From: an uncultured virus (IMG/VR IMGVR_UViG_3300027708_000036)
Taxonomy: Duplodnaviria > Heunggongvirae > Uroviricota > Caudoviricetes
DNA length: 64,000 nt
Reading direction: 5' to 3' (one strand)
Virus record (IMG/VR): IMGVR_UViG_3300027708_000036
The stretch's first letter is position 1; each line of letters starts with the position of its first letter. This document shows positions 383 through 64,000 of this stretch, in pieces. Under the pieces are notes generated by a model that saw only the letters and a program-made list of their open reading frames with translations, made no database searches and was not told the DNA's origin. A program made the position numbers and the translations under genes.

Positions 383-1459
383 ATGGCAAGCATACTAGAC
401 AAAATTAAAAAGAACACAACTATCAAAGACTCTGCGATTCTATCTGAATCAAAGTTCTTTAAGAAGAAGGATATGATTCCTACTTCTGTTCCAATCATCA
501 ATGTGGCTTTATCTGGTCGTCTTGATGGTGGATTAACTCCAGGTATTACAATGTGGGCTGGTCCAAGCAAACACTTTAAGACTGCGTTCTCATTGTTAAT
601 GGCTAAGTCCTATATGGACAAGTATGAAGATGCAGCATTATTATTCTATGACTCAGAGTTCGGTACTCCGCAGTCTTACTTCGATACATTTGGTATTGAT
701 ACAAAGCGTGTTGTTCATACTCCACTCACTGATGTTGAGCAATTGAAGTTCGATATTATGCAACAGTTGTCCAATGTAGATCGTGGTGACCACCTAATTA
801 TTGTTATTGACTCTATTGGTAATCTTGCTTCTAAGAAAGAAGTAGAAGATGCCATGGAAGGTAAGTCTGTTGCAGATATGTCAAGAGCAAAACAGATGAA
901 GTCATTGTTCCGTATGGTAACCCCACACTTGAACCTTAAAGACATTCCACTGGTTGTAGTGAACCATACCTACATGGAAATTGGTATGTTCCCGAAAGCA
1001 ATCGTTGGTGGTGGTACTGGTGCAATGTATTCAGCAGATAATGTTTACATTCTTGGTCGCCAGCAAGAAAAAGAAGGTACTGAAATCGTAGGATACAATT
1101 TTATTATTAACGTAGAGAAGAGTCGTTATGTTAAAGAAAAATCTAAGATACCTGTTAGCGTATCTTTTGATGGTGGTCTTAGTAAGTGGAGCGGTTTGTT
1201 GGATCTTGCTCTTGAATCCAAGCATGTGGTTAAACCCACCAATGGTTGGTATTCCAAATGTGATCCAGATACTGGAGAAGTAGAAACCAAGAAATATCGT
1301 GTCAAAGAAACTGATGATAAAGACTTTTGGTTGTCAATTCTTACAAGCAAATCATTCTATGATTTTGTAAAGAACAAATATTCAATTGGTCAAGGTGGAC
1401 AAATGATGCAAGAAGATGATCTTGATAAAGCATTAGAGGAATTAGAGTTCGATGAGTAA
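383..1459 (+). CDS. uvsX: UvsX RecA-like recombinase
   Basis: AGPSKHFKT P-loop, YDSEFG, DSIGNLASKKE and GGGTG motifs of T4 UvsX. Confidence 0.96.
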   Translation: MASILDKIKKNTTIKDSAILSESKFFKKKDMIPTSVPIINVALSGRLDGGLTPGITMWAGPSKHFKTAFSLLMAKSYMDKYEDAALLFYDSEFGTPQSYFDTFGIDTKRVVHTPLTDVEQLKFDIMQQLSNVDRGDHLIIVIDSIGNLASKKEVEDAMEGKSVADMSRAKQMKSLFRMVTPHLNLKDIPLVVVNHTYMEIGMFPKAIVGGGTGAMYSADNVYILGRQQEKEGTEIVGYNFIINVEKSRYVKEKSKIPVSVSFDGGLSKWSGLLDLALESKHVVKPTNGWYSKCDPDTGEVETKKYRVKETDDKDFWLSILTSKSFYDFVKNKYSIGQGGQMMQEDDLDKALEELEFDE

Positions 1460-40121: not shown

Positions 40122-40365
40122 AAACACTGATACCAATTTAGAACTACCAGCAGAGGTTAGAGTTTATACACCCAATCAAGTTGTAGTTCTAATTAAAGAG
40201 TTTGAAACAGCAAAACTGTTTAGACAAGAGATGACATCAGAAGATGGTGTTAATTGGACTACAGATGATGGTGTATATACTTGCGAAATTGCAAAGGATA
40301 TGTTTGAATACGATAAAGGAACTATTTTAGTAAGAGTTCCAAAGACGAAAGTTGTTGACTTGTAA
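40102..40365 (+). CDS. hypothetical protein
   Basis: ORF overlapping the upstream gene. Confidence 0.55.
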   Translation: MKIVKVKNTDTNLELPAEVRVYTPNQVVVLIKEFETAKLFRQEMTSEDGVNWTTDDGVYTCEIAKDMFEYDKGTILVRVPKTKVVDL

Positions 40366-40389
40366 TAACTTCTGTAGTATAATTATATT

Positions 40390-40914
40390 ATGAACGATTC
40401 AGTGAAAACAGTAGTAGATCATTTTGCAAAAAGAGTATTCGATATTCAATTTGCAGACATCCATGTCAATGCTAAAAAGAAAGCAGTTGATATCGATTGT
40501 AGGATCGTATCAGATTTTATTTCTTGCGAGAATGAGTTTTGCTCTCATGCCACTCCACATATACTTAGAAACTGTAAATGGTGGAGCGAGGGAGCAATCA
40601 AGAAGTTTGAATCACTTCAAGGTACTAAACGACAACGAAGAGAGTCATACGAAGATGGTAAACGAATGTTTAACATCGAACATCAATACCCACTCGGTAT
40701 TATAAAAGACAAGGTAGTTAAAAAAACATTTAAGTCAGTGGAACAAGTTAAAGATTATTTTATTAGGTATAATAAAGTAGTCATTGTTACTGCTGAGGAA
40801 AATGCTAAGTTAAACGCAACCCACAAGACTGCAGCTACAATCCAAGAAGCACGTACCAGATACCAGCAGAATGGAATAGTTGTTCGTAGATTTGATATGA
40901 ATGATATAAAATAG
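40390..40914 (+). CDS. hypothetical protein, possibly HNH/His-Me-finger-like (leaderless)
   Basis: IEHQYP...VTAEENAKLN; promoter TTGACT-17-TATAAT at 40355-40383. Confidence 0.5.
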   Translation: MNDSVKTVVDHFAKRVFDIQFADIHVNAKKKAVDIDCRIVSDFISCENEFCSHATPHILRNCKWWSEGAIKKFESLQGTKRQRRESYEDGKRMFNIEHQYPLGIIKDKVVKKTFKSVEQVKDYFIRYNKVVIVTAEENAKLNATHKTAATIQEARTRYQQNGIVVRRFDMNDIK

Positions 40915-42348: not shown

Positions 42349-43002
42349 ATGAAATATATTATGACTTGTGTAGTGGCATCTATGGTAGCCTTATCTGGAT
42401 GTTCAACTTTTAAGGGAGATCCCAACAAAACAGTTGAGATCCCTGCCAATAAACTCGATAATATTCCTCAATGGTATCTTGCAAAAGATCCAGATGACAC
42501 GAAGTTTATCGTAGTTACTGCGACTGATGTATCGAAAGATATGCAGTTTGCCATCGACAAAGCAACATTGAATGCTAAGATTCAACTTGCCGCACGATTG
42601 AAAACAGATGTTGATTCTGTTACTCGTGAGTCTACACTTGAGACTGCTGGATCTGGTTCTGCTGTTGAACGAGAGATTGATCGTGTATCCAAGGTTCGTG
42701 TGAAGCAAGCCATTGGTATGTTCAAACGAGAGAACATTGCTGTATTCAAAGAGGGTGATGTATATCGTGCATACGTGCAGTTTAAGATTGCAACAGAAGA
42801 TGCGCAACGATTGACTATGCCAGCAGGTAAGAACAAGAATCGTGAAGACAAATTCAAAGAGTTGGAAGATGAACCAAAGGTATCTGCAGTTCAACCAAAT
42901 ACATTCCAACTCCTACCTGTAGAGAACGAAGAATACAAGAAGCGTCGTGAAGAAGCGATGAAGAAACCTGGAGCAGTAATTGGTCAGGCAGTTGTTCGAT
43001 GA
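42349..43002 (+). CDS. lipoprotein (LPP20-like)
   Basis: Lipobox LSGC, IPQWY, A.DKATLNAK.QLA. Confidence 0.65.
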   Translation: MKYIMTCVVASMVALSGCSTFKGDPNKTVEIPANKLDNIPQWYLAKDPDDTKFIVVTATDVSKDMQFAIDKATLNAKIQLAARLKTDVDSVTRESTLETAGSGSAVEREIDRVSKVRVKQAIGMFKRENIAVFKEGDVYRAYVQFKIATEDAQRLTMPAGKNKNREDKFKELEDEPKVSAVQPNTFQLLPVENEEYKKRREEAMKKPGAVIGQAVVR

Positions 43003-43448
43003 AACAGAAGTGGGTAGAAGCATTCATGGATACAGCCGAGCGTTTTGCTCAGCTGTCCAGTGCAGTTAGATTGCAGGTCGGTGCGGTTGTCGTAAAAGAT
43101 AATCGTATCATCTCAATTGGATATAATGGAATGCCATCTGGGTGGACAAACGAATGTGAGAACATCGTGCAGCATTCAGATGACACGATAACAACAGTAA
43201 CAAAAGATGAGGTAATACATGCTGAAGCAAATGCAATACTCAAATTGGCTCGTGATGGTGAATCAGGCAATGGCTCCAGTTTATTCTGTACTCATGCTCC
43301 TTGCATTCATTGCGCTAAGTTAATACATGGTGCAGGAATAGAACATGTTTACTTTCGGGAATCATATCGAGATGAACTTGGTATTGATTTTTTAGAGAAA
43401 TGTAAAATAAGAGTTGAAAAAGTTGACTTTAATTCAATAATGAACTAA
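42999..43448 (+). CDS. cd: dCMP deaminase
   Basis: VGAVVVKD, IGYNG, HAEANAI, PCIHC. Confidence 0.92.
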   Translation: MKQKWVEAFMDTAERFAQLSSAVRLQVGAVVVKDNRIISIGYNGMPSGWTNECENIVQHSDDTITTVTKDEVIHAEANAILKLARDGESGNGSSLFCTHAPCIHCAKLIHGAGIEHVYFRESYRDELGIDFLEKCKIRVEKVDFNSIMN

Positions 43449-43512
43449 GATAGTGACTAAATAGATTACTGTCTGAAAAACCTTACAAGTTGTAGGGTTA
43501 TCCAGATAGTGC

Positions 43513-43541
43513 TTGACAAATAACCAAAGGTGTAGTAGAAT
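43513..43541 (+). promoter_or_regulatory. sigma70-type promoter of the tRNA-array leader
   Basis: TTGACA-17-TAGAAT; a second promoter TTGACT-17-TAAGAT lies at 43423-43451. Confidence 0.8.
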
Positions 43542-43547
43542 TCAATC

Positions 43548-43667
43548 ATGAACTTAAGAAATATATCCTCGCAGAAACATCTCCCGCTATTAAGTGGCTG
43601 GACATGCTCACGCACATCATTTGGATATAATGCGATTGAGGATTCTGGGGGTTTGGCAAGTACATAA
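43548..43667 (+). CDS. putative attenuator leader peptide (39 aa, leaderless)
   Basis: MNLRNISSQKHLPLLSGWTCSRTSFGYNAIEDSGGLAST*; 19 amino acids and 33 distinct codons; 3' end complementary to the 5' arm of the downstream terminator. Confidence 0.75.
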   Translation: MNLRNISSQKHLPLLSGWTCSRTSFGYNAIEDSGGLAST

Positions 43668-43690
43668 CTGACACACGCAGTTTACTTACC

Positions 43691-43724
43691 AAACCCTCTG
43701 AGATGAAAATCCAGAGGGTTTTTT
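43691..43724 (+). terminator. intrinsic terminator (attenuator) upstream of the tRNA array
   Basis: AAACCCTCTG-a-GAT-GAAA-ATC-CAGAGGGTTT followed by a T tract. Confidence 0.88.
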
Positions 43725-43747
43725 GTTTTATAGCCATCGTGCTAAAA

Positions 43748-43762
43748 TGTTCTTTTACAATT
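43748..43762 (+). promoter_or_regulatory. rrn-type boxA antitermination element
   Basis: TGTTCTTTTACAATT versus the rRNA leader boxA TGCTCTTTAACAATT. Confidence 0.6.
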
Positions 43763-43773
43763 CAGGATTCTGT

Positions 43774-43847
43774 TGGGGGTTGGTGTAGTGGTAGCACACT
43801 TGACTTTGACTCAAGTAGTACAAGTTCGATTCTTGTACCCCCTGCCA
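43774..43847 (+). tRNA. tRNA-Gln(TTG)
   Basis: Cloverleaf, anticodon loop CTTTGAC, GTTCGA, CCA. Confidence 0.92.
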
Positions 43848-43856
43848 AACAGAAAC

Positions 43857-43927
43857 ACATTGATCATCTAATTGGTCAGGATGGTGTTCATAAGGCACTA
43901 AATGTAGGTTCGACTCCTACTCAGTGT
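43857..43927 (+). ncRNA. tRNA-like element lacking CCA, with an extended acceptor helix
   Basis: ACATTGA/TCAGTGT stem, D-arm, GTAGG-TTCGACT-CCTAC T-arm, non-canonical anticodon arm. Confidence 0.6.
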
Positions 43928-43948
43928 GTTTTTGTTTGGTAAAAATAT

Positions 43949-44022
43949 GGGAGTGAAACTTTAAGGTGAAGTAACTGGCTTTTAACCAGTAAAATTCGGA
44001 TCGTTCCCGAACACTCCTACCA
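43949..44022 (+). tRNA. tRNA-Lys(TTT), atypical T-loop
   Basis: ACTGG-CTTTTAA-CCAGT; T-loop ATCGTTC; CCA. Confidence 0.85.
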
Positions 44023-44027
44023 ATTAT

Positions 44028-44103
44028 GGTGTTTATAGTGTAGTGGTCTGCACATCTCGCTGTGACCGAGATAGTATGAGTTCGATCCTCATTAAACACC
44101 CCA
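44028..44103 (+). tRNA. tRNA-His(GTG)
   Basis: G-1:C73, anticodon loop CTGTGAC. Confidence 0.93.
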
Positions 44104-44104
44104 T

Positions 44105-44180
44105 GCTGCTTTAGCTGATGTGGTCATAGCGGTGGTTTGAAGAACCATTGAAAGTAGTTCGATTCTACTAGGCAGCACCA
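44105..44180 (+). tRNA. tRNA-Phe(GAA)
   Basis: Anticodon loop TTGAAGA, CCA. Confidence 0.9.
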
Positions 44181-44189
44181 AAAAATTAG

Positions 44190-44264
44190 TCCCGATTAGC
44201 TCAGAGGTAGAGCAATCGCTTGATAAGCGATAGGCGAGTGGATCGTTACCACTATCGGGAACCA
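44190..44264 (+). tRNA. tRNA-Ile(GAT), atypical T-loop
   Basis: ATCGC-TTGATAA-GCGAT; T-loop ATCGTTA. Confidence 0.9.
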
Positions 44265-44270
44265 AGTTAT

Positions 44271-44360
44271 GGAGAGTTGGTCGAGTCTGGTTTATGGCAA
44301 CAGTCTTGAAAACTGTCGAACAGAAATGTTCCGTGAGTTCGAATCTCACACTCTCCGCCA
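44271..44360 (+). tRNA. tRNA-Ser(TGA)
   Basis: Loop CTTGAAA, long variable arm, GCCA. Confidence 0.93.
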
Positions 44361-44364
44361 ATAT

Positions 44365-44439
44365 GCCTCGTTATTTCAGTGGTAGAATGTCTCTTTTACA
44401 CGGAGAAGGTCGGCAGTTCGAATCTGTCACGAGGTACCA
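44365..44439 (+). tRNA. tRNA-Val(TAC)
   Basis: Loop TTTACAC. Confidence 0.92.
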
Positions 44440-44441
44440 AT

Positions 44442-44516
44442 ACCCGATTGGTGAAATGAATATCACGCTGTGCTACGAACGCAGAAGTGGAGGTTTGATT
44501 CCTTCATTGGGTGCCA
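44442..44516 (+). tRNA. tRNA-Arg(ACG)
   Basis: Loop CTACGAA. Confidence 0.88.
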
Positions 44517-44522
44517 AAGTTT

Positions 44523-44611
44523 GGAAGATGGGCAGGACGGTAATGCAGCAGATTGCTAATCTGTCATCGTAGTGATACGGTGAGTGAGTTCGACTCTCAC
44601 ATCTTCCGCCA
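44523..44611 (+). tRNA. tRNA-Ser(GCT)
   Basis: Loop TTGCTAA, long variable arm. Confidence 0.92.
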
Positions 44612-44617
44612 AATGTT

Positions 44618-44692
44618 GGGCTGATAGCTTAATGGTAAAGCAATCGACTCATAATCGATTGAGTCTGAGTTCAATTCTCAGTCAGCCCACCA
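44618..44692 (+). tRNA. tRNA-Ile2(CAT) (lysidine type, probable)
   Basis: ATCGA-CTCATAA-TCGAT; body resembles bacterial Ile2 rather than Met. Confidence 0.8.
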
Positions 44693-44694
44693 AT

Positions 44695-44772
44695 GCCTCG
44701 ATGGACAAATTGGAAAAGTCGTCTCTCTCAAAAGGAGAAATTCTGTGAGTTCGAATCTCACTCGAGGTACCA
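44695..44772 (+). tRNA. tRNA-Leu(CAA), short variable arm
   Basis: Loop CTCAAAA; 78 nt. Confidence 0.85.
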
Positions 44773-44776
44773 ACTG

Positions 44777-44805
44777 TTGACTTGCAAGATTGTTTGATGT
44801 ATAAT
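44777..44805 (+). promoter_or_regulatory. internal promoter of the tRNA array (near-duplicate at 45064-45092)
   Basis: TTGACT-TGCAAGATT...-TATAAT, 17 nt spacer. Confidence 0.8.
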
Positions 44806-44814
44806 AGAGTAACT

Positions 44815-44897
44815 GCGAGTATGATGAAATTGGTAAACATAGAAGACTTAAAATCTTCCGCTTCGGCTTCCCAGTTCGAGTCTGGGTACTCGCACCA
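44815..44897 (+). tRNA. tRNA-Leu(TAA)
   Basis: Loop CTTAAAA, variable arm with TTCG loop. Confidence 0.93.
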
Positions 44898-44899
44898 AT

Positions 44900-44974
44900 A
44901 CGGCTATAGTATAATGGAGAATACAGTAGGCTTCTACCCTACGAATGTGGGTTCGATTCCTGCTAGCCGTGCCA
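44900..44974 (+). tRNA. tRNA-Arg(TCT)
   Basis: Loop CTTCTAC. Confidence 0.9.
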
Positions 44975-44981
44975 GAATTAT

Positions 44982-45055
44982 GTGAGTGGAGCCAGTTGGA
45001 CAGGCACTGGATTGCAAACCCATGGAAGTAGGTTCGATTCCTATCACTCACTCCA
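44982..45055 (+). tRNA. tRNA-Cys(GCA)
   Basis: Loop TTGCAAA, U73 discriminator; imperfect anticodon stem. Confidence 0.82.
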
Positions 45056-45226
45056 GATAGTTGTTGACTTGCAAGATTATTTGAGGTATAATAGTTGTTC
45101 TTCGAAAGTCCACTCTAAGTCTGCGGTAAATACGTAGCATGTGGCAGGGATGGCTTGATTGTTGCAACTCGCCTACAATCTCCCATGCAAGCAAGTTTGG
45201 TAGTTCTTGTAAAAAACTACCACTGT

Positions 45227-45302
45227 GCTCGATTCGTCTATCGGTTAGGACACTGCCCTTTCACGGCAGGAAGGAGGGGTTCGATTCCCCCATCGAGTAC
45301 CA
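45227..45302 (+). tRNA. tRNA-Glu(TTC)
   Basis: Loop CTTTCAC. Confidence 0.93.
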
Positions 45303-45303
45303 G

Positions 45304-45535
45304 ATTTAATTACATTGGTTATCAACCCAGTAGGTGACTTATGCAGAGATATATTCCTAGTGACGGCTAGGCTCTGGTAAGTTACACGAAAGATGGAAAC
45401 GAAGTCGAAAGATGGATACGGTGGTCACGCTGGAACAAGTTGGGCACGTAATGTGGTTGACAGACAAGTCCATGGACGGCATGGTAGGGCAGGTTCAAAA
45501 CTGTTTATTCTGTCAAACACCCAGTGTAATTAAAT
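45304..45535 (+). ncRNA. unannotated structured ncRNA A
   Basis: 15 bp closing helix ATTTAATTACATTGG / CCAGTGTAATTAAAT enclosing several hairpins; no credible ORF. Confidence 0.7.
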
Positions 45536-45540
45536 GTGGT

Positions 45541-45687
45541 ATTAGTTTAGTGTTATCAAGGTATCGTCATAGGACGCTATGACTACTCGACAGTTAGGGT
45601 GCGACTGAAACTGTCTGATATAACTGCCACTCGCTTGTCAGTGTTAGCTACATTGTTGACAAATCGGCACGATAACACTAAACTAAT
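45541..45687 (+). ncRNA. unannotated structured ncRNA B
   Basis: Perfect 17 bp closing helix ATTAGTTTAGTGTTATC / GATAACACTAAACTAAT enclosing three hairpins. Confidence 0.72.
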
Positions 45688-45693
45688 ATCATT

Positions 45694-45786
45694 GGAGCAA
45701 TTGATGCTATGGCGTGTGCATCCTCAGACTGTAAATCTGATCCCTCTGGGTAAACAATCTTGGTTCGACTCCAAGTTGCTCCACCA
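45694..45786 (+). tRNA. tRNA-Tyr(GTA)
   Basis: Loop CTGTAAA, variable arm. Confidence 0.88.
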
Positions 45787-45793
45787 GTTTTTA

Positions 45794-45868
45794 GGCTCGT
45801 TAGTATAATGGTCATTACAGCGGATTGTCTATCCGCTTATGGGAGTTCGATTCTCCCACGAGTCGCCA
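45794..45868 (+). tRNA. tRNA-Asp(GTC)
   Basis: Loop TTGTCTA, G73. Confidence 0.9.
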
Positions 45869-45872
45869 AGTT

Positions 45873-45950
45873 TGCGGAGTATGGAAGTGGTCTATCCGTC
45901 TGGTCTCATAAGCCATGAAATCGTTGGTTCGAATCCAACCTCCGCTACCA
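45873..45950 (+). tRNA. tRNA-fMet(CAT) (initiator-like)
   Basis: Unpaired 1:72, GCGGAG acceptor, loop CTCATAA. Confidence 0.8.
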
Positions 45951-46216
45951 AGCCATGCAGCGTCACAACTGCTACTCTGACCCAGAGGAAATGAAACTGA
46001 GTTGTCCTCAGTAGGGTGGTTCTTTTCTATTAAATTAGAAGGCATCGAAACTGTTATAGAAGACAGATAAGATGGGGTCGACCAAACCAGCGTTAGCAAC
46101 ACGAGAGTTCTGTCCGTGGCGAGTGGGTGGAGGGCATGCTTGATGGAGAAACTGGTGCGATGTACACAAACCAGAAATAAACTGATGTGCTATAATTACC
46201 ACGACGGATAGAAAGC
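45951..46216 (+). ncRNA. unannotated structured ncRNA C
   Basis: Multi-hairpin 5' domain and a 3' domain closed by TTCTGTCCGT / ACGGATAGAA; no credible ORF. Confidence 0.62.
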
Positions 46217-46221
46217 ATTTT

Positions 46222-46298
46222 GCCCCGATGACGGAATTGGTATACGTGTTGGTCTTAGAAGCCAAATTTTGCGAGTTCGAGTCTCGCTTGGGGCACCA
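46222..46298 (+). tRNA. tRNA-Leu(TAG), short variable arm
   Basis: Loop CTTAGAA; 77 nt. Confidence 0.87.
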
Positions 46299-46304
46299 AA
46301 TTTC

Positions 46305-46379
46305 GGTGATGTAGCACAACGGTAGTGCAACTCCTTCATACGGAGTAGGTTAGTGGCTCGATTCCACTCATCACCACCA
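46305..46379 (+). tRNA. tRNA-Met(CAT) elongator (probable)
   Basis: ACTCC-TTCATAC-GGAGT. Confidence 0.85.
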
Positions 46380-46386
46380 AATATAG

Positions 46387-46463
<77 letters not shown>

Positions 46464-46477
46464 AGATAAGTAGAAGT

Positions 46478-47131
46478 ATGAAGCACATGGCATTATATTT
46501 GCACCATCCCGAATGTTCGAAGGACTGTGCGTATGCCATGGTTAATGCTCTTTCTTCAGATTACCAAATACGGATATTTGAAGAAAGCGAGTTAGACGAT
46601 GATAGTTTCTTTGACAATATTGACATTATTGCTTTTCCTGGTGGTATTGGCGATAGCGACAGTTATCCTAATTTCTTCACTAGAACAAGAGCGAATCGAA
46701 TCGCCAGATTCTTGGATGGTGGTGGTCACTATCTTGGCATCTGCATGGGTGCTTATTGGGCTGGAAGTCGTTATTTCGATATACTTACTGATGTTGGTCC
46801 AGTTCAGTACATAAAGAGACCGAATGCCACTGTTCGCAGAAGTTATGGAACAGTTGCTGATGTAGAGTGGAATGGTACAAAAGAGCAGATGTATTTTTAT
46901 GATGGTTGTGCGCTGATTGGAGACGAGACAAAGTTTAAAACAATCGCACGATATGCCAATGGTGATCCAATGGCAATCATACAAGGAAGAATAGGATTAA
47001 TAGGTTGCCACCCAGAAGCACCACTGTATTGGTATGAGAAACCATGGCAATACATAAACAAACACTGGAACGATGGAAGACATCACACACTGTTGTTAGA
47101 TTTTGTAAATAAATTATGCCCTATTAGTTAA
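46478..47131 (+). CDS. BPL_N / class I glutamine amidotransferase-like protein
   Basis: AFPGG, GGHYLGICMGAY nucleophile elbow, GCHPE. Confidence 0.82.
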   Translation: MKHMALYLHHPECSKDCAYAMVNALSSDYQIRIFEESELDDDSFFDNIDIIAFPGGIGDSDSYPNFFTRTRANRIARFLDGGGHYLGICMGAYWAGSRYFDILTDVGPVQYIKRPNATVRRSYGTVADVEWNGTKEQMYFYDGCALIGDETKFKTIARYANGDPMAIIQGRIGLIGCHPEAPLYWYEKPWQYINKHWNDGRHHTLLLDFVNKLCPIS

Positions 47132-47191
47132 ATGGTAGAACACCTGTTTTGTAATCAGGTAATGGCAGTTCGATTCTGTCATGGGGCACCA
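47118..47191 (+). tRNA. tRNA-Thr(TGT)
   Basis: Loop TTTGTAA; overlaps the last codons of the upstream CDS. Confidence 0.88.
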
Positions 47192-47210
47192 AACAATAAT
47201 GGAGAATGTC

Positions 47211-47348
47211 GTGTCATCAAGAGAAACAATAGAGAAAGCATATGGAAGCATTCCCAAAGAAGTAGGAATGTATCATGATTGGGGTATCCCAACATGGAGA
47301 GGTTTTAAGTATTACTGGTATAAAATTACCAGAAAAGTAACAAGATAA
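47211..47348 (+). CDS. small hypothetical protein (not in the ORF track)
   Basis: GGAG SD and GTG start; MSSRETIEKAYGSIPKEVGMYHDWGIPTWRGFKYYWYKITRKVTR*. Confidence 0.55.
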   Translation: MSSRETIEKAYGSIPKEVGMYHDWGIPTWRGFKYYWYKITRKVTR

Positions 47349-47354
47349 GTTTAT

Positions 47355-47430
47355 TCCGCAGTAGCTCAGTTGGTAGAGTAGATGACTGTTAATCATTTGG
47401 TCGATGGTTCGAGCCCATCCTGTGGAGCCA
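47355..47430 (+). tRNA. tRNA-Asn(GTT)
   Basis: Loop CTGTTAA, GCCA. Confidence 0.94.
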
Positions 47431-47436
47431 AGTATC

Positions 47437-47510
47437 GGGGGATTAGTATAATGGGATTACGGCAGCTTTGCAAGCTGTTTATGGGAGTTCGATCCTCCCA
47501 TCCTCCACCA
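47437..47510 (+). tRNA. tRNA-Ala(TGC)
   Basis: G3:U70, loop TTTGCAA. Confidence 0.94.
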
Positions 47511-47560
47511 AGAATCGCTCTCACATATGGCGTATAATAAGATAAGTAATATGTGACCTT

Positions 47561-47634
47561 GCTCTGTTAGTTAAATGGTATAACAGTTGATTAGTAATCA
47601 TCAATTGGGAGTTCGATTCTCTCACGGAGCACCA
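47561..47634 (+). tRNA. tRNA-Thr(AGT)
   Basis: Loop TTAGTAA (A34); C2:G71 Thr identity pair. Confidence 0.85.
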
Positions 47635-47636
47635 AT

Positions 47637-47710
47637 ATCTCTCTAGTGTAATGGCAGCACGAAAATCTCCAAAATTTTTAGTCGGGGTTCAAGTCCCTGG
47701 AGGGATGCCA
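47637..47710 (+). tRNA. tRNA-Trp(CCA)
   Basis: Loop CTCCAAA, G73. Confidence 0.9.
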
Positions 47711-47712
47711 AT

Positions 47713-47786
47713 GCGGGATTAGTTTAATGGTAAAACTACAGATTTCCAATCTGTTGTTATCAGTTCGATTCTGATATTCCGCTCCA
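47713..47786 (+). tRNA. tRNA-Gly(TCC)
   Basis: GCG start, loop TTTCCAA, TCCA end. Confidence 0.92.
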
Positions 47787-47804
47787 TTTAAGATAGAGGT
47801 AGTT

Positions 47805-48281
47805 ATGCGTAAAGATATCAACATCGATGAAGTGAAACAATTCATCGAGGCACAGAGTCCTGAATCTAAGATTTATATCGGTGGCGACTCTGAACGATTT
47901 AATATCGGTGATGATTTCTACGCTGATTATATCTTAGTGATTGTTGTTCATATCAATGGTAATAATGGTTGTAAAATCTTCGGTGAAGTATCTCGTGAAA
48001 GAGACTATGACCAGAAGAAAAGCAAACCACGTATGCGATTGATGAATGAAGTATATAAAATTGCAGAGTTGTATCTAAAGTTGCATGAAGTTCTGGAAGA
48101 CAGAGATGTGGAAGTTCACCTTGACATTAATCCAGACGAAATGCATGGATCATCTTGCGTAATCAACGAAGCAGTTGGTTACATTAAGGGTATGTGCAAT
48201 ATTGTACCATTTGTAAAACCAAATGCATTTGCAGCATCATACGCTGCAGACAGATACAAGTCTTACATGCGTGCAGCATAA
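47805..48281 (+). CDS. YkuK/DUF458 RNase H-like protein
   Basis: IYIGGDSE, RLMNEV, VHLDINP, AASYAADR. Confidence 0.82.
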   Translation: MRKDINIDEVKQFIEAQSPESKIYIGGDSERFNIGDDFYADYILVIVVHINGNNGCKIFGEVSRERDYDQKKSKPRMRLMNEVYKIAELYLKLHEVLEDRDVEVHLDINPDEMHGSSCVINEAVGYIKGMCNIVPFVKPNAFAASYAADRYKSYMRAA

Positions 48282-48324
48282 TTTGACATGCAGGGAATAT
48301 TATTGTATAATAAGTAGTAAGAGT

Positions 48325-48399
48325 GCGGGATTAATTCAGTGGTAGAATGTTTCGTTGCCAACGAAAATGTCATCGGTTCAAATCCGATATCCCGCTCCA
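48325..48399 (+). tRNA. tRNA-Gly(GCC)
   Basis: Loop TTGCCAA; own promoter TTGACA-17-TATAAT at 48283-48311. Confidence 0.93.
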
Positions 48400-48415
48400 A
48401 CAACATGGAGATATT

Positions 48416-48622
48416 ATGACAGAAGAAACTACACCAGTACCACTAACCTTTAAAGAGCAGTGGGAACAAAAGAAACTACTGAAGCGAGCCAAGAAAAAAG
48501 CAAAGCATAATTTGCAAAGCCAAGGATTGGGTCGCAAAGAAGCAAGTAAAGCAGTCAACAAAGCAGTCAATCGAATCGCTTCCAATAAGCCCATGCAACG
48601 TGCTGCTGGACGTGGCGGATAA
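48416..48622 (+). CDS. small basic protein
   Basis: GGAG SD; Lys/Arg-rich, ends GRGG. Confidence 0.6.
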   Translation: MTEETTPVPLTFKEQWEQKKLLKRAKKKAKHNLQSQGLGRKEASKAVNKAVNRIASNKPMQRAAGRGG

Positions 48623-48627
48623 AATAC

Positions 48628-48649
48628 AATCCCACATAGTGGGATTTTT
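48628..48649 (+). terminator. intrinsic terminator
   Basis: AATCCCAC-ATA-GTGGGATT followed by T tract. Confidence 0.7.
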
Positions 48650-48666
48650 CACATTAGGAATTTATT

Positions 48667-49068
48667 ATGTTTGAATGTATCATAGCAGGAGATTCAATTG
48701 GAGTAGGAATTGCCAATGTACGTAAAGAGTGCGTGGCATATGTACAAGGTGGAATTAACTCGCACCAGTGGTTGAATAAAAATATTCAAAACACACCACT
48801 AATTGCTAATCATGTAATCATCTCACTTGGTTCAAACGACCACAAATACGTTAAGACTGAGGAAGAACTCAGAGTCATTCGTAAACTAACCAAAGCCGAC
48901 AGAGTGTATTGGATTATGCCAAGCGATAAGTTTCCAGCAGCACAATCAGCAGTGTGGCATGTGGCAAACGAGAATAACGATATGATTCTTGGAACGAAAC
49001 GAATGCAAACCGATGGTGTCCACCCATCGTGGGCAGGATATAAAGAACTAGCGGAGAAGGCAAGATGA
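48667..49068 (+). CDS. SGNH/GDSL hydrolase-like protein
   Basis: GDSIG, LGSND, DGVHP. Confidence 0.82.
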   Translation: MFECIIAGDSIGVGIANVRKECVAYVQGGINSHQWLNKNIQNTPLIANHVIISLGSNDHKYVKTEEELRVIRKLTKADRVYWIMPSDKFPAAQSAVWHVANENNDMILGTKRMQTDGVHPSWAGYKELAEKAR

Positions 49069-49274
49069 ACATTAAAGACTATCAGATGGAGCCAAAGAAG
49101 CCACTATCATTCGAGGAGTGGAAGGGTAATATTGCTCCACAATATCAAGGAGAGAAACTCAAGGCATATGATAGACTGCATAATGTAGACTACGAGAAAG
49201 AATTCAATGCCATGCTTAAATCAGAGTATGCAGAATACCTATCAAATCTAAATGGAGACTGGTTGCTAAAATGA
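49065..49274 (+). CDS. hypothetical protein
   Basis: 69 aa coupled ORF; followed by several further short ORFs up to about 50430. Confidence 0.55.
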   Translation: MNIKDYQMEPKKPLSFEEWKGNIAPQYQGEKLKAYDRLHNVDYEKEFNAMLKSEYAEYLSNLNGDWLLK

Positions 49275-49560
49275 TACTGGTAGCCACATGGATCACTGTT
49301 GGATTCTTTTCAGCCATCGGATGGTATGGAGCGAATCATCTCGTCATTGAACCATACCTGCCACCACCGAGACAGATAGAGAAAAAGAAAGATGATTGAA
49401 ATAATTATAGCACTGGCAATAGGAATTGCACTGGGTTTCGCATTAAACAATAAGAAACCACCAGAGCAGGAACAACCACCAGACTATGCCTATTACAAAA
49501 ACCTATCCGAATCACTAATGCAAGATGTGAGACGACTAAGAGAAGAACTAAGGAAGAAAG

Positions 49561-63418: not shown

Positions 63419-63443
63419 CTTGTAACTAAATACAAGGTATAAT
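63415..63443 (+). promoter_or_regulatory. sigma70-type promoter for tmRNA
   Basis: TTGACT-17-TATAAT. Confidence 0.8.
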
Positions 63444-63449
63444 GTAGGT

Positions 63450-63741
63450 TATTGCTGTATGAAGCAAAGAGAAAAGTGTTCTGGACGGGAGTTCGATTCT
63501 CCCCACCTCCACCAGAAGTGCATGTGTTAGATGAAAGAAACCATTTTATGGGCTCTAATGGGTGTACTTCTGATGGGGGTGACTAGGTTTCGACAGGGCA
63601 ACAAGTACACAAGTGGACAGCACGACACAGAGAGTCGTAAAAAGTAAAAAACCGTAAACGCAAACGACGCACAGTTCGCATTAGCAGCCTAAACACTGCT
63701 TAGGGTTTCGATAGGTTTCCTCGTAACAGAATAACCTATCA
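63450..63741 (+). ncRNA. ssrA: circularly permuted (two-piece) tmRNA
   Basis: The T-arm and CACCTCC-A-CCA 3' end (to 63514) precede the GGGGGTG-AC-TAGG-TTTCGAC 5' end (from 63575); G3:U70; tag ORF 63660-63692 encodes ANDAQFALAA*. Confidence 0.92.
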
Positions 63742-63764
63742 CATTATTTTAAAAAGGGAATTAC

Positions 63765-64000
63765 ATGAAAAAAGTTATTTTAGTAACAGCATTAATGGCA
63801 TCGATGGGTGCACAAGCAGTTGAACTAGGTATTAATGCAAGTCGTGATACTGCCAATACAGATCGTACTGGTTATGGTATTACAATTGGACAGAAGTATG
63901 ACAAAGTAGGCATTACAGCTGGCTTTGATCAATACAAATCTGGAATTGATATGAACAAGTATAGTTTAGTTGCTTCTTATGATGTTACCAAAGTTGGTGC
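63765..64000 (+). CDS. outer-membrane beta-barrel protein (partial)
   Basis: Signal peptide MKKVILVTALMASMGAQA followed by alternating amphipathic beta-strands; runs off the window. Confidence 0.65.
   Translation, partial: MKKVILVTALMASMGAQAVELGINASRDTANTDRTGYGITIGQKYDKVGITAGFDQYKSGIDMNKYSLVASYDVTKVG

Follow-up and report, generated by a model that had tools for sequence, protein, structure and literature searches.

Attenuators of the enteric type (trp, his, leu, thr, ilv, pheA) combine a leader open reading frame (ORF) with mutually exclusive antiterminator and terminator helices; once a ribosome reaches the leader end, the terminator is favoured. In a related arrangement, the pheST attenuator with its pheM leader senses Phe codons and controls a synthetase. 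To our knowledge, the leader-peptide attenuators described so far each sense one or a few amino acids and control biosynthesis or a synthetase, and we are not aware of a leader of about 40 codons that includes all 20 amino acids and gates transfer RNA (tRNA) genes. Here, we analyse a candidate for such an element at positions 43513–43762 of a 64,000-nucleotide (nt) stretch of DNA from an uncultured virus of the Caudoviricetes (IMG/VR record IMGVR_UViG_3300027708_000036; the whole stretch is referred to as the window), where a short leader ORF with its own promoter, a putative antiterminator and an intrinsic terminator precede an array of tRNA genes.

The phage locus resembles the enteric attenuators in its short leader ORF, its exclusive helices and the expected effect of a ribosome at the leader end, which would favour the terminator. 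In contrast to them, its leader contains no run of a single amino acid but roughly one residue of each of the 20 kinds, the genes under control would be tRNAs instead of biosynthetic enzymes, the messenger RNA (mRNA) is predicted to be leaderless, the element is encoded by a phage, and no anti-antiterminator (1:2) helix was found in its folds, so that the default state without translation would be read-through. With pheST/pheM the locus would share leader-peptide attenuation of a component of the translation apparatus by the supply of charged tRNA, the target being a synthetase there and tRNA genes here. T-box riboswitches likewise couple tRNA charging to terminator read-through via an antiterminator, but they bind one uncharged tRNA directly and without translation, and a search of positions 42500–49500 against Rfam with E-values up to 1 returned only tRNAs and chance matches and no T-box. 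A precedent for a leaderless leader peptide is the trpL attenuator of S. meliloti (rnTrpL/peTrpL), whose transcript starts at the leader ATG and whose terminated RNA and leader peptide are reported to act in trans (PMC7298713). By analogy, trans action of the terminated RNA and the peptide is conceivable for the phage element, although the S. meliloti leader has 14 amino acids with Trp codons and controls trpE(G).

The leader ORF (43548–43667, plus strand, stop codon included) comprises 39 codons. As counted in an earlier note on this DNA, which had proposed a sensor of tRNA depletion, it uses 19 of the 20 amino acids, all within the first 32 codons and with only Val missing, and 33 distinct codons. 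The sigma-70-type promoter TTGACA-17-TAGAAT (43513–43541, plus strand; −35 box 43513–43518, −10 box 43536–43541) that the same note had placed in front of the ORF is also listed by the promoter scan and matches the consensus at 11 of 12 positions. The ATG at 43548 lies 6 nt past the −10 box and transcription is thus predicted to start at or next to it, which would make the mRNA leaderless.

The antiterminator hairpin (43647–43698, plus strand) is formed by a 5′ strand (43647–43662) that coincides with the last codons of the ORF, five to seven of them, and by a 3′ strand (43683–43698) that includes the bases CCCTC. Pairing at 15 of 16 positions between these strands, as initially read from the letters, is present in the minimum free energy (MFE) fold with one G.U pair and one C/A mismatch. 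The hairpin has a folding energy of −24.7 kcal/mol (z −6.2; z −3.4 for the fold of the whole leader RNA), and the stop codon (43665–43667) lies in its apical part. Folding also recovers the strong intrinsic terminator that had been claimed (43694–43729, plus strand), in which CCCTCTG(A)GAT pairs with ATCCAGAGGG around a GAAA loop to form a stem at 43694–43718 (−18.3 kcal/mol, z −5.7) that is followed by TTTTTTGTTTT; the consensus scan missed it because the loop rule of the scan is 3–8 nt. The antiterminator and the terminator share five nucleotides (CCCTC) and are therefore mutually exclusive. When both strands are present in the window RNA, the antiterminator wins the fold.

We examined 147 loci, namely the window and 146 related metagenomic phage loci. 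These stem from a search with an exact 34-base sequence of the terminator (10 viral contigs), a peptide-profile search of IMG/VR (67 loci confirmed out of 145 pattern matches) and a search of Joint Genome Institute (JGI) metagenomes (88 confirmed out of 215 pattern matches, of which the best 80 were kept). Some contigs are common to the IMG/VR and JGI sets, and counts therefore refer to distinct sequences. One IMG/VR locus (L078) was dropped because its match comprised 14 residues within an ORF of 491 amino acids. The nearest record to the window (G001) is 100% identical over 43000–44300.

The earlier note had pointed to relatives in which the ORF is absent or broken as evidence that would speak against a sensor. 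The leader ORF is complete and unbroken in 143 of the 147 loci, the other four being cut by a contig end, so that it is intact in every complete locus (143/143) and broken in none. Leader length varies from 38 to 45 codons. For 59 of 61 unique sequences, the ATG and the first antiterminator base are 99, 102, 105, 108, 111 or 120 nt apart and always in phase (the two remaining distances are off by one in the model alignment). Synonymous variation occurs at conserved residues (Leu as CTC, CTA, CTT or TTA, Pro as CCG or CCA, Gly as GGC or GGT). This evolutionary pattern indicates that the ORF is a coding frame and argues for its translation. Among 28 diverse members, a peptide core HLPLxSGW..R plus a D and a G is conserved, with P, W, D and G invariant and L, G and R nearly so. 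A protein search yielded 32 further members of the family, all of them named “hypothetical protein” at most and without a Pfam domain. The leader peptide itself had no match among Pfam and PHROG families and no usable neighbour in the ESM Atlas, and AlphaFold2 with a 28-row alignment gave no confident fold (predicted local distance difference test 60, predicted template modelling score 0.12) and no secondary structure.

The promoter and its position relative to the ATG are likewise kept. In the 65 unique upstream regions of the relatives, the match to the sigma-70 consensus reaches at least 10 of 12 positions in 59 and the spacer is 17 nt in 63, while the −10 box precedes the ATG by 3–10 nt, and by 6–7 nt in 55 of the regions. 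A perfect 4-mer match to a Shine-Dalgarno site is found in only three of these 65 regions, compared to 34 of the 63 other ORFs of the window that have such a site.

Both helices show compensatory changes, which had been suggested as a check of the attenuator geometry. With a covariance model built for the antiterminator, the element was recovered in all 67 loci searched and once in the window. Over 62 distinct rows, 93.2% of the cells of the antiterminator are paired and 12 of its 20 pairs are changed on both sides; none of 500 shuffles reached the observed values, and slid controls pair at 36–66%. For the terminator helix, to which the alignment was not fitted, 96.1% of the cells are paired, seven of 10 pairs are changed on both sides, and again none of 500 shuffles scored as high. 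The shared bases (CCCTC or CCCC) are almost invariant among relatives, as is to be expected if each has to pair in two alternative helices. In each of the 62 rows, the antiterminator is the more stable of the two hairpins (mean −22.1 kcal/mol, compared to −13.1 for the terminator). When the joint segment is folded, the shared bases pair in the antiterminator only in 41 rows, are split 3:2 in 21, in which the three G-C pairs adjoining the U-run are unformed, and pair in the terminator only in none of the 62. Counted from the first antiterminator base, the stop codon begins 15–21 nt downstream in 59 of 61 sequences; the two remaining sequences have it at 14 and 19 nt, likewise inside the hairpin. 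A ribosome that reaches the stop must consequently have opened the 5′ strand.

The near-complete set of amino acids is not a peculiarity of the window. Among 67 distinct peptides of 38–45 amino acids, 39 are complete, with all 20 amino acids, and the other 28 have 19 kinds, lacking Val in 27 cases and Arg in one. As a null, we took 12,952 segments of 39 codons from the 63 ORFs of the window, which have on average 15.7 kinds of amino acids (standard deviation (sd) 1.6); 3.1% of them reach at least 19 kinds and 0.27% reach 20. Distinct codons average 24.5 (sd 2.7) in these segments, and 0.04% have at least 33. Random draws from the pooled composition of the family reach at least 19 kinds in 4.4% and 20 kinds in 0.46% of cases.

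Several residues are mostly present in exactly one copy (Tyr in all 67 peptides, Cys and Trp in 66 each, His in 65 and Asp in 59), and positions change: Cys, His and Tyr each occupy four alignment columns and Asp two. Replacement of Cys22 by Asn, Ser, Thr or Gly is accompanied by a Cys at position 4–6; peptides with Gln in place of His13 have a His at position 7 or 10; and in one lineage that lost the otherwise invariant Asp, an Asp is present upstream. When residues were shuffled within columns, the mean number of kinds was 18.38 (sd 0.09) compared to 19.55 observed, with none of 2,000 shuffles reaching the observed value, and 29.8 of 62 peptides had at least 19 kinds compared to 62 of 62 observed; as this control breaks relatedness, the result is not a probability. 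Because single-copy Cys, His, Tyr and Asp move yet are never lost, selection appears to act on their presence, not on their position, and the pattern is consistent with selection that keeps every amino acid represented at least once. Sequences with two copies of a residue would be intermediates of such a move under selection for presence. Of 55 distinct peptides, 49 have their full set completed ahead of the antiterminator strand. Residues that move but are never lost are a rare and clean sign that selection acts on the composition and not on the sequence.

The module is linked to the tRNA array. We scanned 134 loci for tRNAs, of which 13 end less than 200 nt past the stop codon. In every locus with at least 200 nt after the stop (121/121), the leader module heads a tRNA array, which starts within 160 nt of the stop in 110 loci and at 182–336 nt in 11, and the first gene is almost always tRNA-Gln(UUG); no tRNA lies upstream of the leader in any of the 134 loci. 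In the window, the array consists of 29 genes (43774–48399, ARAGORN) that cover all 20 amino acids and begins with tRNA-Gln(UUG) at 43774, which is 50 nt past position 43724, the terminator end given in the earlier note, and thus at the distance it had stated. The first block comprises 12 genes (43774–44772, plus strand). Past the leader promoter, the next sigma-70-like promoter in the consensus scan is the one at 44777, so that these 12 tRNAs have no other recognisable promoter.

Taken together, sequence comparison indicates a coding ORF, two selected helices, a stop codon inside the antiterminator, an amino-acid set that is kept complete and a module bound to the array. From these we infer the coupling of ribosome and polymerase, its timing, the direction of the response and the nature of the signal. 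Transcription would start at or next to the ATG and produce a leaderless mRNA. The polymerase would then make the antiterminator, and as long as this hairpin is undisturbed it would hold the CCCTC needed by the terminator, resulting in read-through into the tRNA genes. A ribosome reaching the stop codon inside the hairpin would unwind the 5′ strand, the terminator could form and transcription would stop. With about one codon per amino acid in the leader, a low supply of nearly any charged tRNA would keep the ribosome upstream and thereby switch the array on. Starvation might cause such a shortage, and so might the decay of the host tRNA pool that follows shut-off or the action of defence nucleases that cleave tRNAs. 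The tRNA supply would be self-adjusting, as the feedback would act on an array that itself covers all 20 amino acids. A pause of the polymerase is perhaps needed for timing. A small conserved hairpin inside the ORF (CCGCU-AUUA-AGUGG; 43584–43597, plus strand; RNAalifold consensus) keeps its five pairs in 44–45 of 45 sequences, with a one-sided change (A-U to G-U) as the sole variation, and is a possible RNA polymerase pause hairpin without compensatory support. On balance, we give about an even chance to an attenuator that is coupled to translation and opens the tRNA array once any aminoacyl-tRNA becomes scarce. The more far-reaching idea of a universal charged-tRNA sensor, a minimal peptide containing every amino acid in which a stall at any kind of codon turns on the complete set of phage tRNAs, is a tentative proposal that we consider somewhat doubtful.

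Several observations weigh against the attenuator or limit its reach. The peptide, for which the earlier note had predicted poor conservation, is in fact conserved, and more so than a sensor needs for which any sequence will do, so that it could act as a peptide. Val is absent from 27 of the 67 peptides, although the array carries a tRNA-Val. Given the peptide, codon diversity in the relatives (mean 32.0 distinct codons) is not clearly beyond what the peptide itself entails, as 29.4 are expected from phage codon usage (median p 0.11) and 31.3 from uniform synonymous choice; the idea of a “pan-codon” leader that samples isoacceptors is thus weak, and the signal is pan-amino-acid and not at the isoacceptor level. 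Stalling at almost any codon had been supposed to free the antiterminator. However, one to three kinds of amino acids, among them the nearly invariant Asp, lie within 2–4 codons of the antiterminator, and given the usual footprint of a ribosome, a stall within the last codons before the hairpin would probably cover its base. The regulatory codons of classical attenuators come in runs for one amino acid. The leader contains no such run and has about one copy of each amino acid, so that mild starvation may go unsensed. Neither the MFE nor the RNAalifold folds contain a helix that sequesters the antiterminator 5′ strand, and the RNAalifold consensus contains no pause hairpin with compensatory support. 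The alignment behind the antiterminator counts was fitted to the antiterminator structure, which favours these counts. Internal promoters at 44777, 45064 and 48283, already named in the earlier note and all listed by the scan, feed later tRNAs. RNA-library contigs from four libraries of four studies cover about 43489–43714 at a depth of 3–6, and one metatranscriptome contig spans the terminator into the array (43691–43797). The contigs over the leader begin 23–59 nt upstream of the predicted transcription start; contig ends reflect assembly. As such contigs can show neither RNA ends nor expression levels and DNA carry-over is possible, they were given no weight.

The spacer between the terminator and the first tRNA offers another route to tRNA expression. 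By comparison of relatives, it holds (43731–43761, plus strand) a small hairpin with the conserved loop CCATCGTG (43731–43744) and the conserved motif TTCTTTTACAAT (43750–43761). The stems of the hairpin differ among relatives (TAGC/GCTA, GGC/GCC, GGG/CCC), and the motif takes the form TTCTTT(A/T)A(A/C)AAT 12–25 nt before the first tRNA; in the window it has one exact copy, at 43750–43761 itself. A similar motif, TTCTTTAAAAA, precedes the first tRNA of Xanthomonas phage BUDD (locus L163, about 1200–1215, minus strand). The motif and hairpin may be a processing site, a weak −10 box or an unusual promoter element; as an unrecognised promoter, they could free the tRNAs from read-through, which likewise counts against the attenuator.

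Among other explanations, the ORF might encode a small functional protein whose short transcript ends at the terminator, with the hairpin stabilising the mRNA or tuning translation, the array driven by promoter elements of its own, and the amino-acid set a product of chance kept by ordinary purifying selection. The conservation of the peptide across the 28 diverse members agrees with this, as do the spacer motif and hairpin with a motif of the same type in BUDD, and leader peptides can act in trans, as described for peTrpL of S. meliloti (PMC7298713). A position-specific fold or binding function would, however, not predict single-copy residues that move and are never lost, the peptide has no predicted fold and no family, name or Atlas neighbour, and no sigma-70-like promoter is listed before the first tRNA block. 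Moreover, a plain gene end needs neither two selected, competing helices nor a stop codon inside the antiterminator, and we consider the small protein unlikely. The movement of residues bears in the same way on a nascent-chain arrest motif. TnaC, SecM and SpeFL are arrest peptides, and the core HLPLLSGW..R might similarly arrest the ribosome for a specific ligand or factor and thereby set the switch, with the amino-acid set being incidental. The core is conserved at the peptide level despite synonymous variation, and a stall at codons 13–24 would leave the antiterminator free; still, Cys22 and His13 of the core are replaceable when a copy is present elsewhere, which an arrest motif does not predict, and we regard this explanation as quite improbable.

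The switch might also respond to the loading or running of ribosomes alone, that is, to free 70S, initiation capacity or overall elongation speed, and not to individual aminoacyl-tRNAs. The conserved leaderless start, which depends on direct 70S loading, the antiterminator as the default fold without a ribosome and the weakness of single codons as sensors all speak for it, but it gives no account of why all 20 amino acids are kept in 38–45 codons or why lost residues reappear elsewhere; it seems improbable to us. Finally, the stretch from promoter to terminator might be a structured non-coding small RNA with an incidental open frame. The fold of the leader (z −3.4), the high nucleotide conservation with ATATCC and the core almost invariant and, weakly, the short RNA-library contigs that cover just the leader stretch in four studies would agree with this. 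The frame that is open in 143 of 143 complete loci, the seven length classes that all stay in phase and the synonymous changes contradict it, and there is no Rfam match at E-values up to 1, so that a non-coding RNA is close to excluded.

For the preferred attenuator, the class of mechanism is known, while the sensor logic and the target are without a description in the literature searched. A full-text search, in which subscription journals were not covered, found no all-amino-acid leader gating tRNA genes. Phage tRNAs have been reported to replace depleted or cleaved host tRNAs and to counter tRNA-cleaving immunity (PMC10264068, eLife 2023; PMC11464382, Nature 2024); these studies concern the tRNAs themselves, and their abstracts mention no sensor of the array and no regulated expression. 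If the attenuator operates as proposed, phage tRNA arrays would be regulated by feedback from translation itself, which would provide a directly testable handle on the debate whether phages carry tRNAs for codon compensation or to evade immunity that targets tRNAs, and a compact natural part that reports the shortage of any amino acid or tRNA. A universal sensor, if true, would restore decoding capacity on demand, for example when a host nuclease cleaves one tRNA species, and the phage would not need to know beforehand which tRNA is attacked.

The source of the window is a freshwater phage, and the window is part of a large T4-like genome with all genes on the plus strand and with PHROG matches to a UvsX-like recombinase, a DnaB-like helicase, a primase, ribonucleotide reductase, thymidylate synthase, PhoH and MazG. 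Among cultured phages, those nearest to it by UvsX are Stenotrophomonas phage DLP_6 (63%), Phage C48C1 (62%) and Xanthomonas phage BUDD (60%), and the Menderavirus group (Menderavirus Moby) has 58%. A search of GenBank phages found no DNA match to the region and, by tblastn with a 40-amino-acid family member at E-values up to 1, no protein match, the nearest records possibly being excluded from it. In 185,579 prokaryote genomes, none of 63 pattern matches was confirmed and no host copy was found. The covariance model R1 had no match in DLP_6, C48C1 or Moby, and scanning upstream of their arrays revealed no terminator-like site or comparable module. In BUDD (ON758385.1), the model had one weak match (E 0.64) just upstream of the array. 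There, an ORF of 39 amino acids (L163, 1560–1679, minus strand) with 18 kinds of amino acids (all but Cys and Ile) precedes the first tRNA, from which one more small ORF separates it. Its stop codon lies within a hairpin, the next element is an intrinsic terminator, and both structures coexist in one fold. Because the hairpins are not exclusive, we ruled out the BUDD site as the same switch. In Stenotrophomonas phage Moby (NC_048802.1; L167, 566–712, plus strand), an ORF of 48 codons, in which all 20 amino acids occur, ends 14 nt short of a tRNA gene. Terminator-like sites were not flagged there, and the arrangement may be coincidence.

Further features were noted around the leader and the array. 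Just 5′ of the leader promoter, AACCTTACA and TGTAGGGTT form a hairpin (43482–43502) that, with an A-run before it on the plus strand, reads as a minus-strand terminator, and there is no minus-strand gene at this place; three of the four RNA-library contigs over the leader start near it. A second gene that is likely leaderless is found at 40355–40914 (plus strand), where TTGACT-17-TATAAT ends at 40383, the ATG of an ORF of 174 amino acids follows 6 nt later and no Shine-Dalgarno site is present. Within the array, the second gene (43856–43929, plus strand) is called tRNA-Tyr by ARAGORN with the unusual anticodon ATA and matches the Rfam tRNA family with 41.4 bits, and its identity is doubtful. 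A 93-nt tRNA (45694–45786, plus strand) is called Tyr(GTA) by ARAGORN, its best Rfam match being tRNA-Sec with 27.5 bits, which is under the threshold of that family. Two gaps of the array (45303–45693 and 45951–46221, plus strand) are without an ORF of at least 100 amino acids, and a terminator-like site lies at 45999–46022. Lastly, the window carries a transfer-messenger RNA (tmRNA) gene (63422–63783, plus strand) with the tag peptide ANDAQFALAA, which we take to resemble proteobacterial tags and which may hint at the host.

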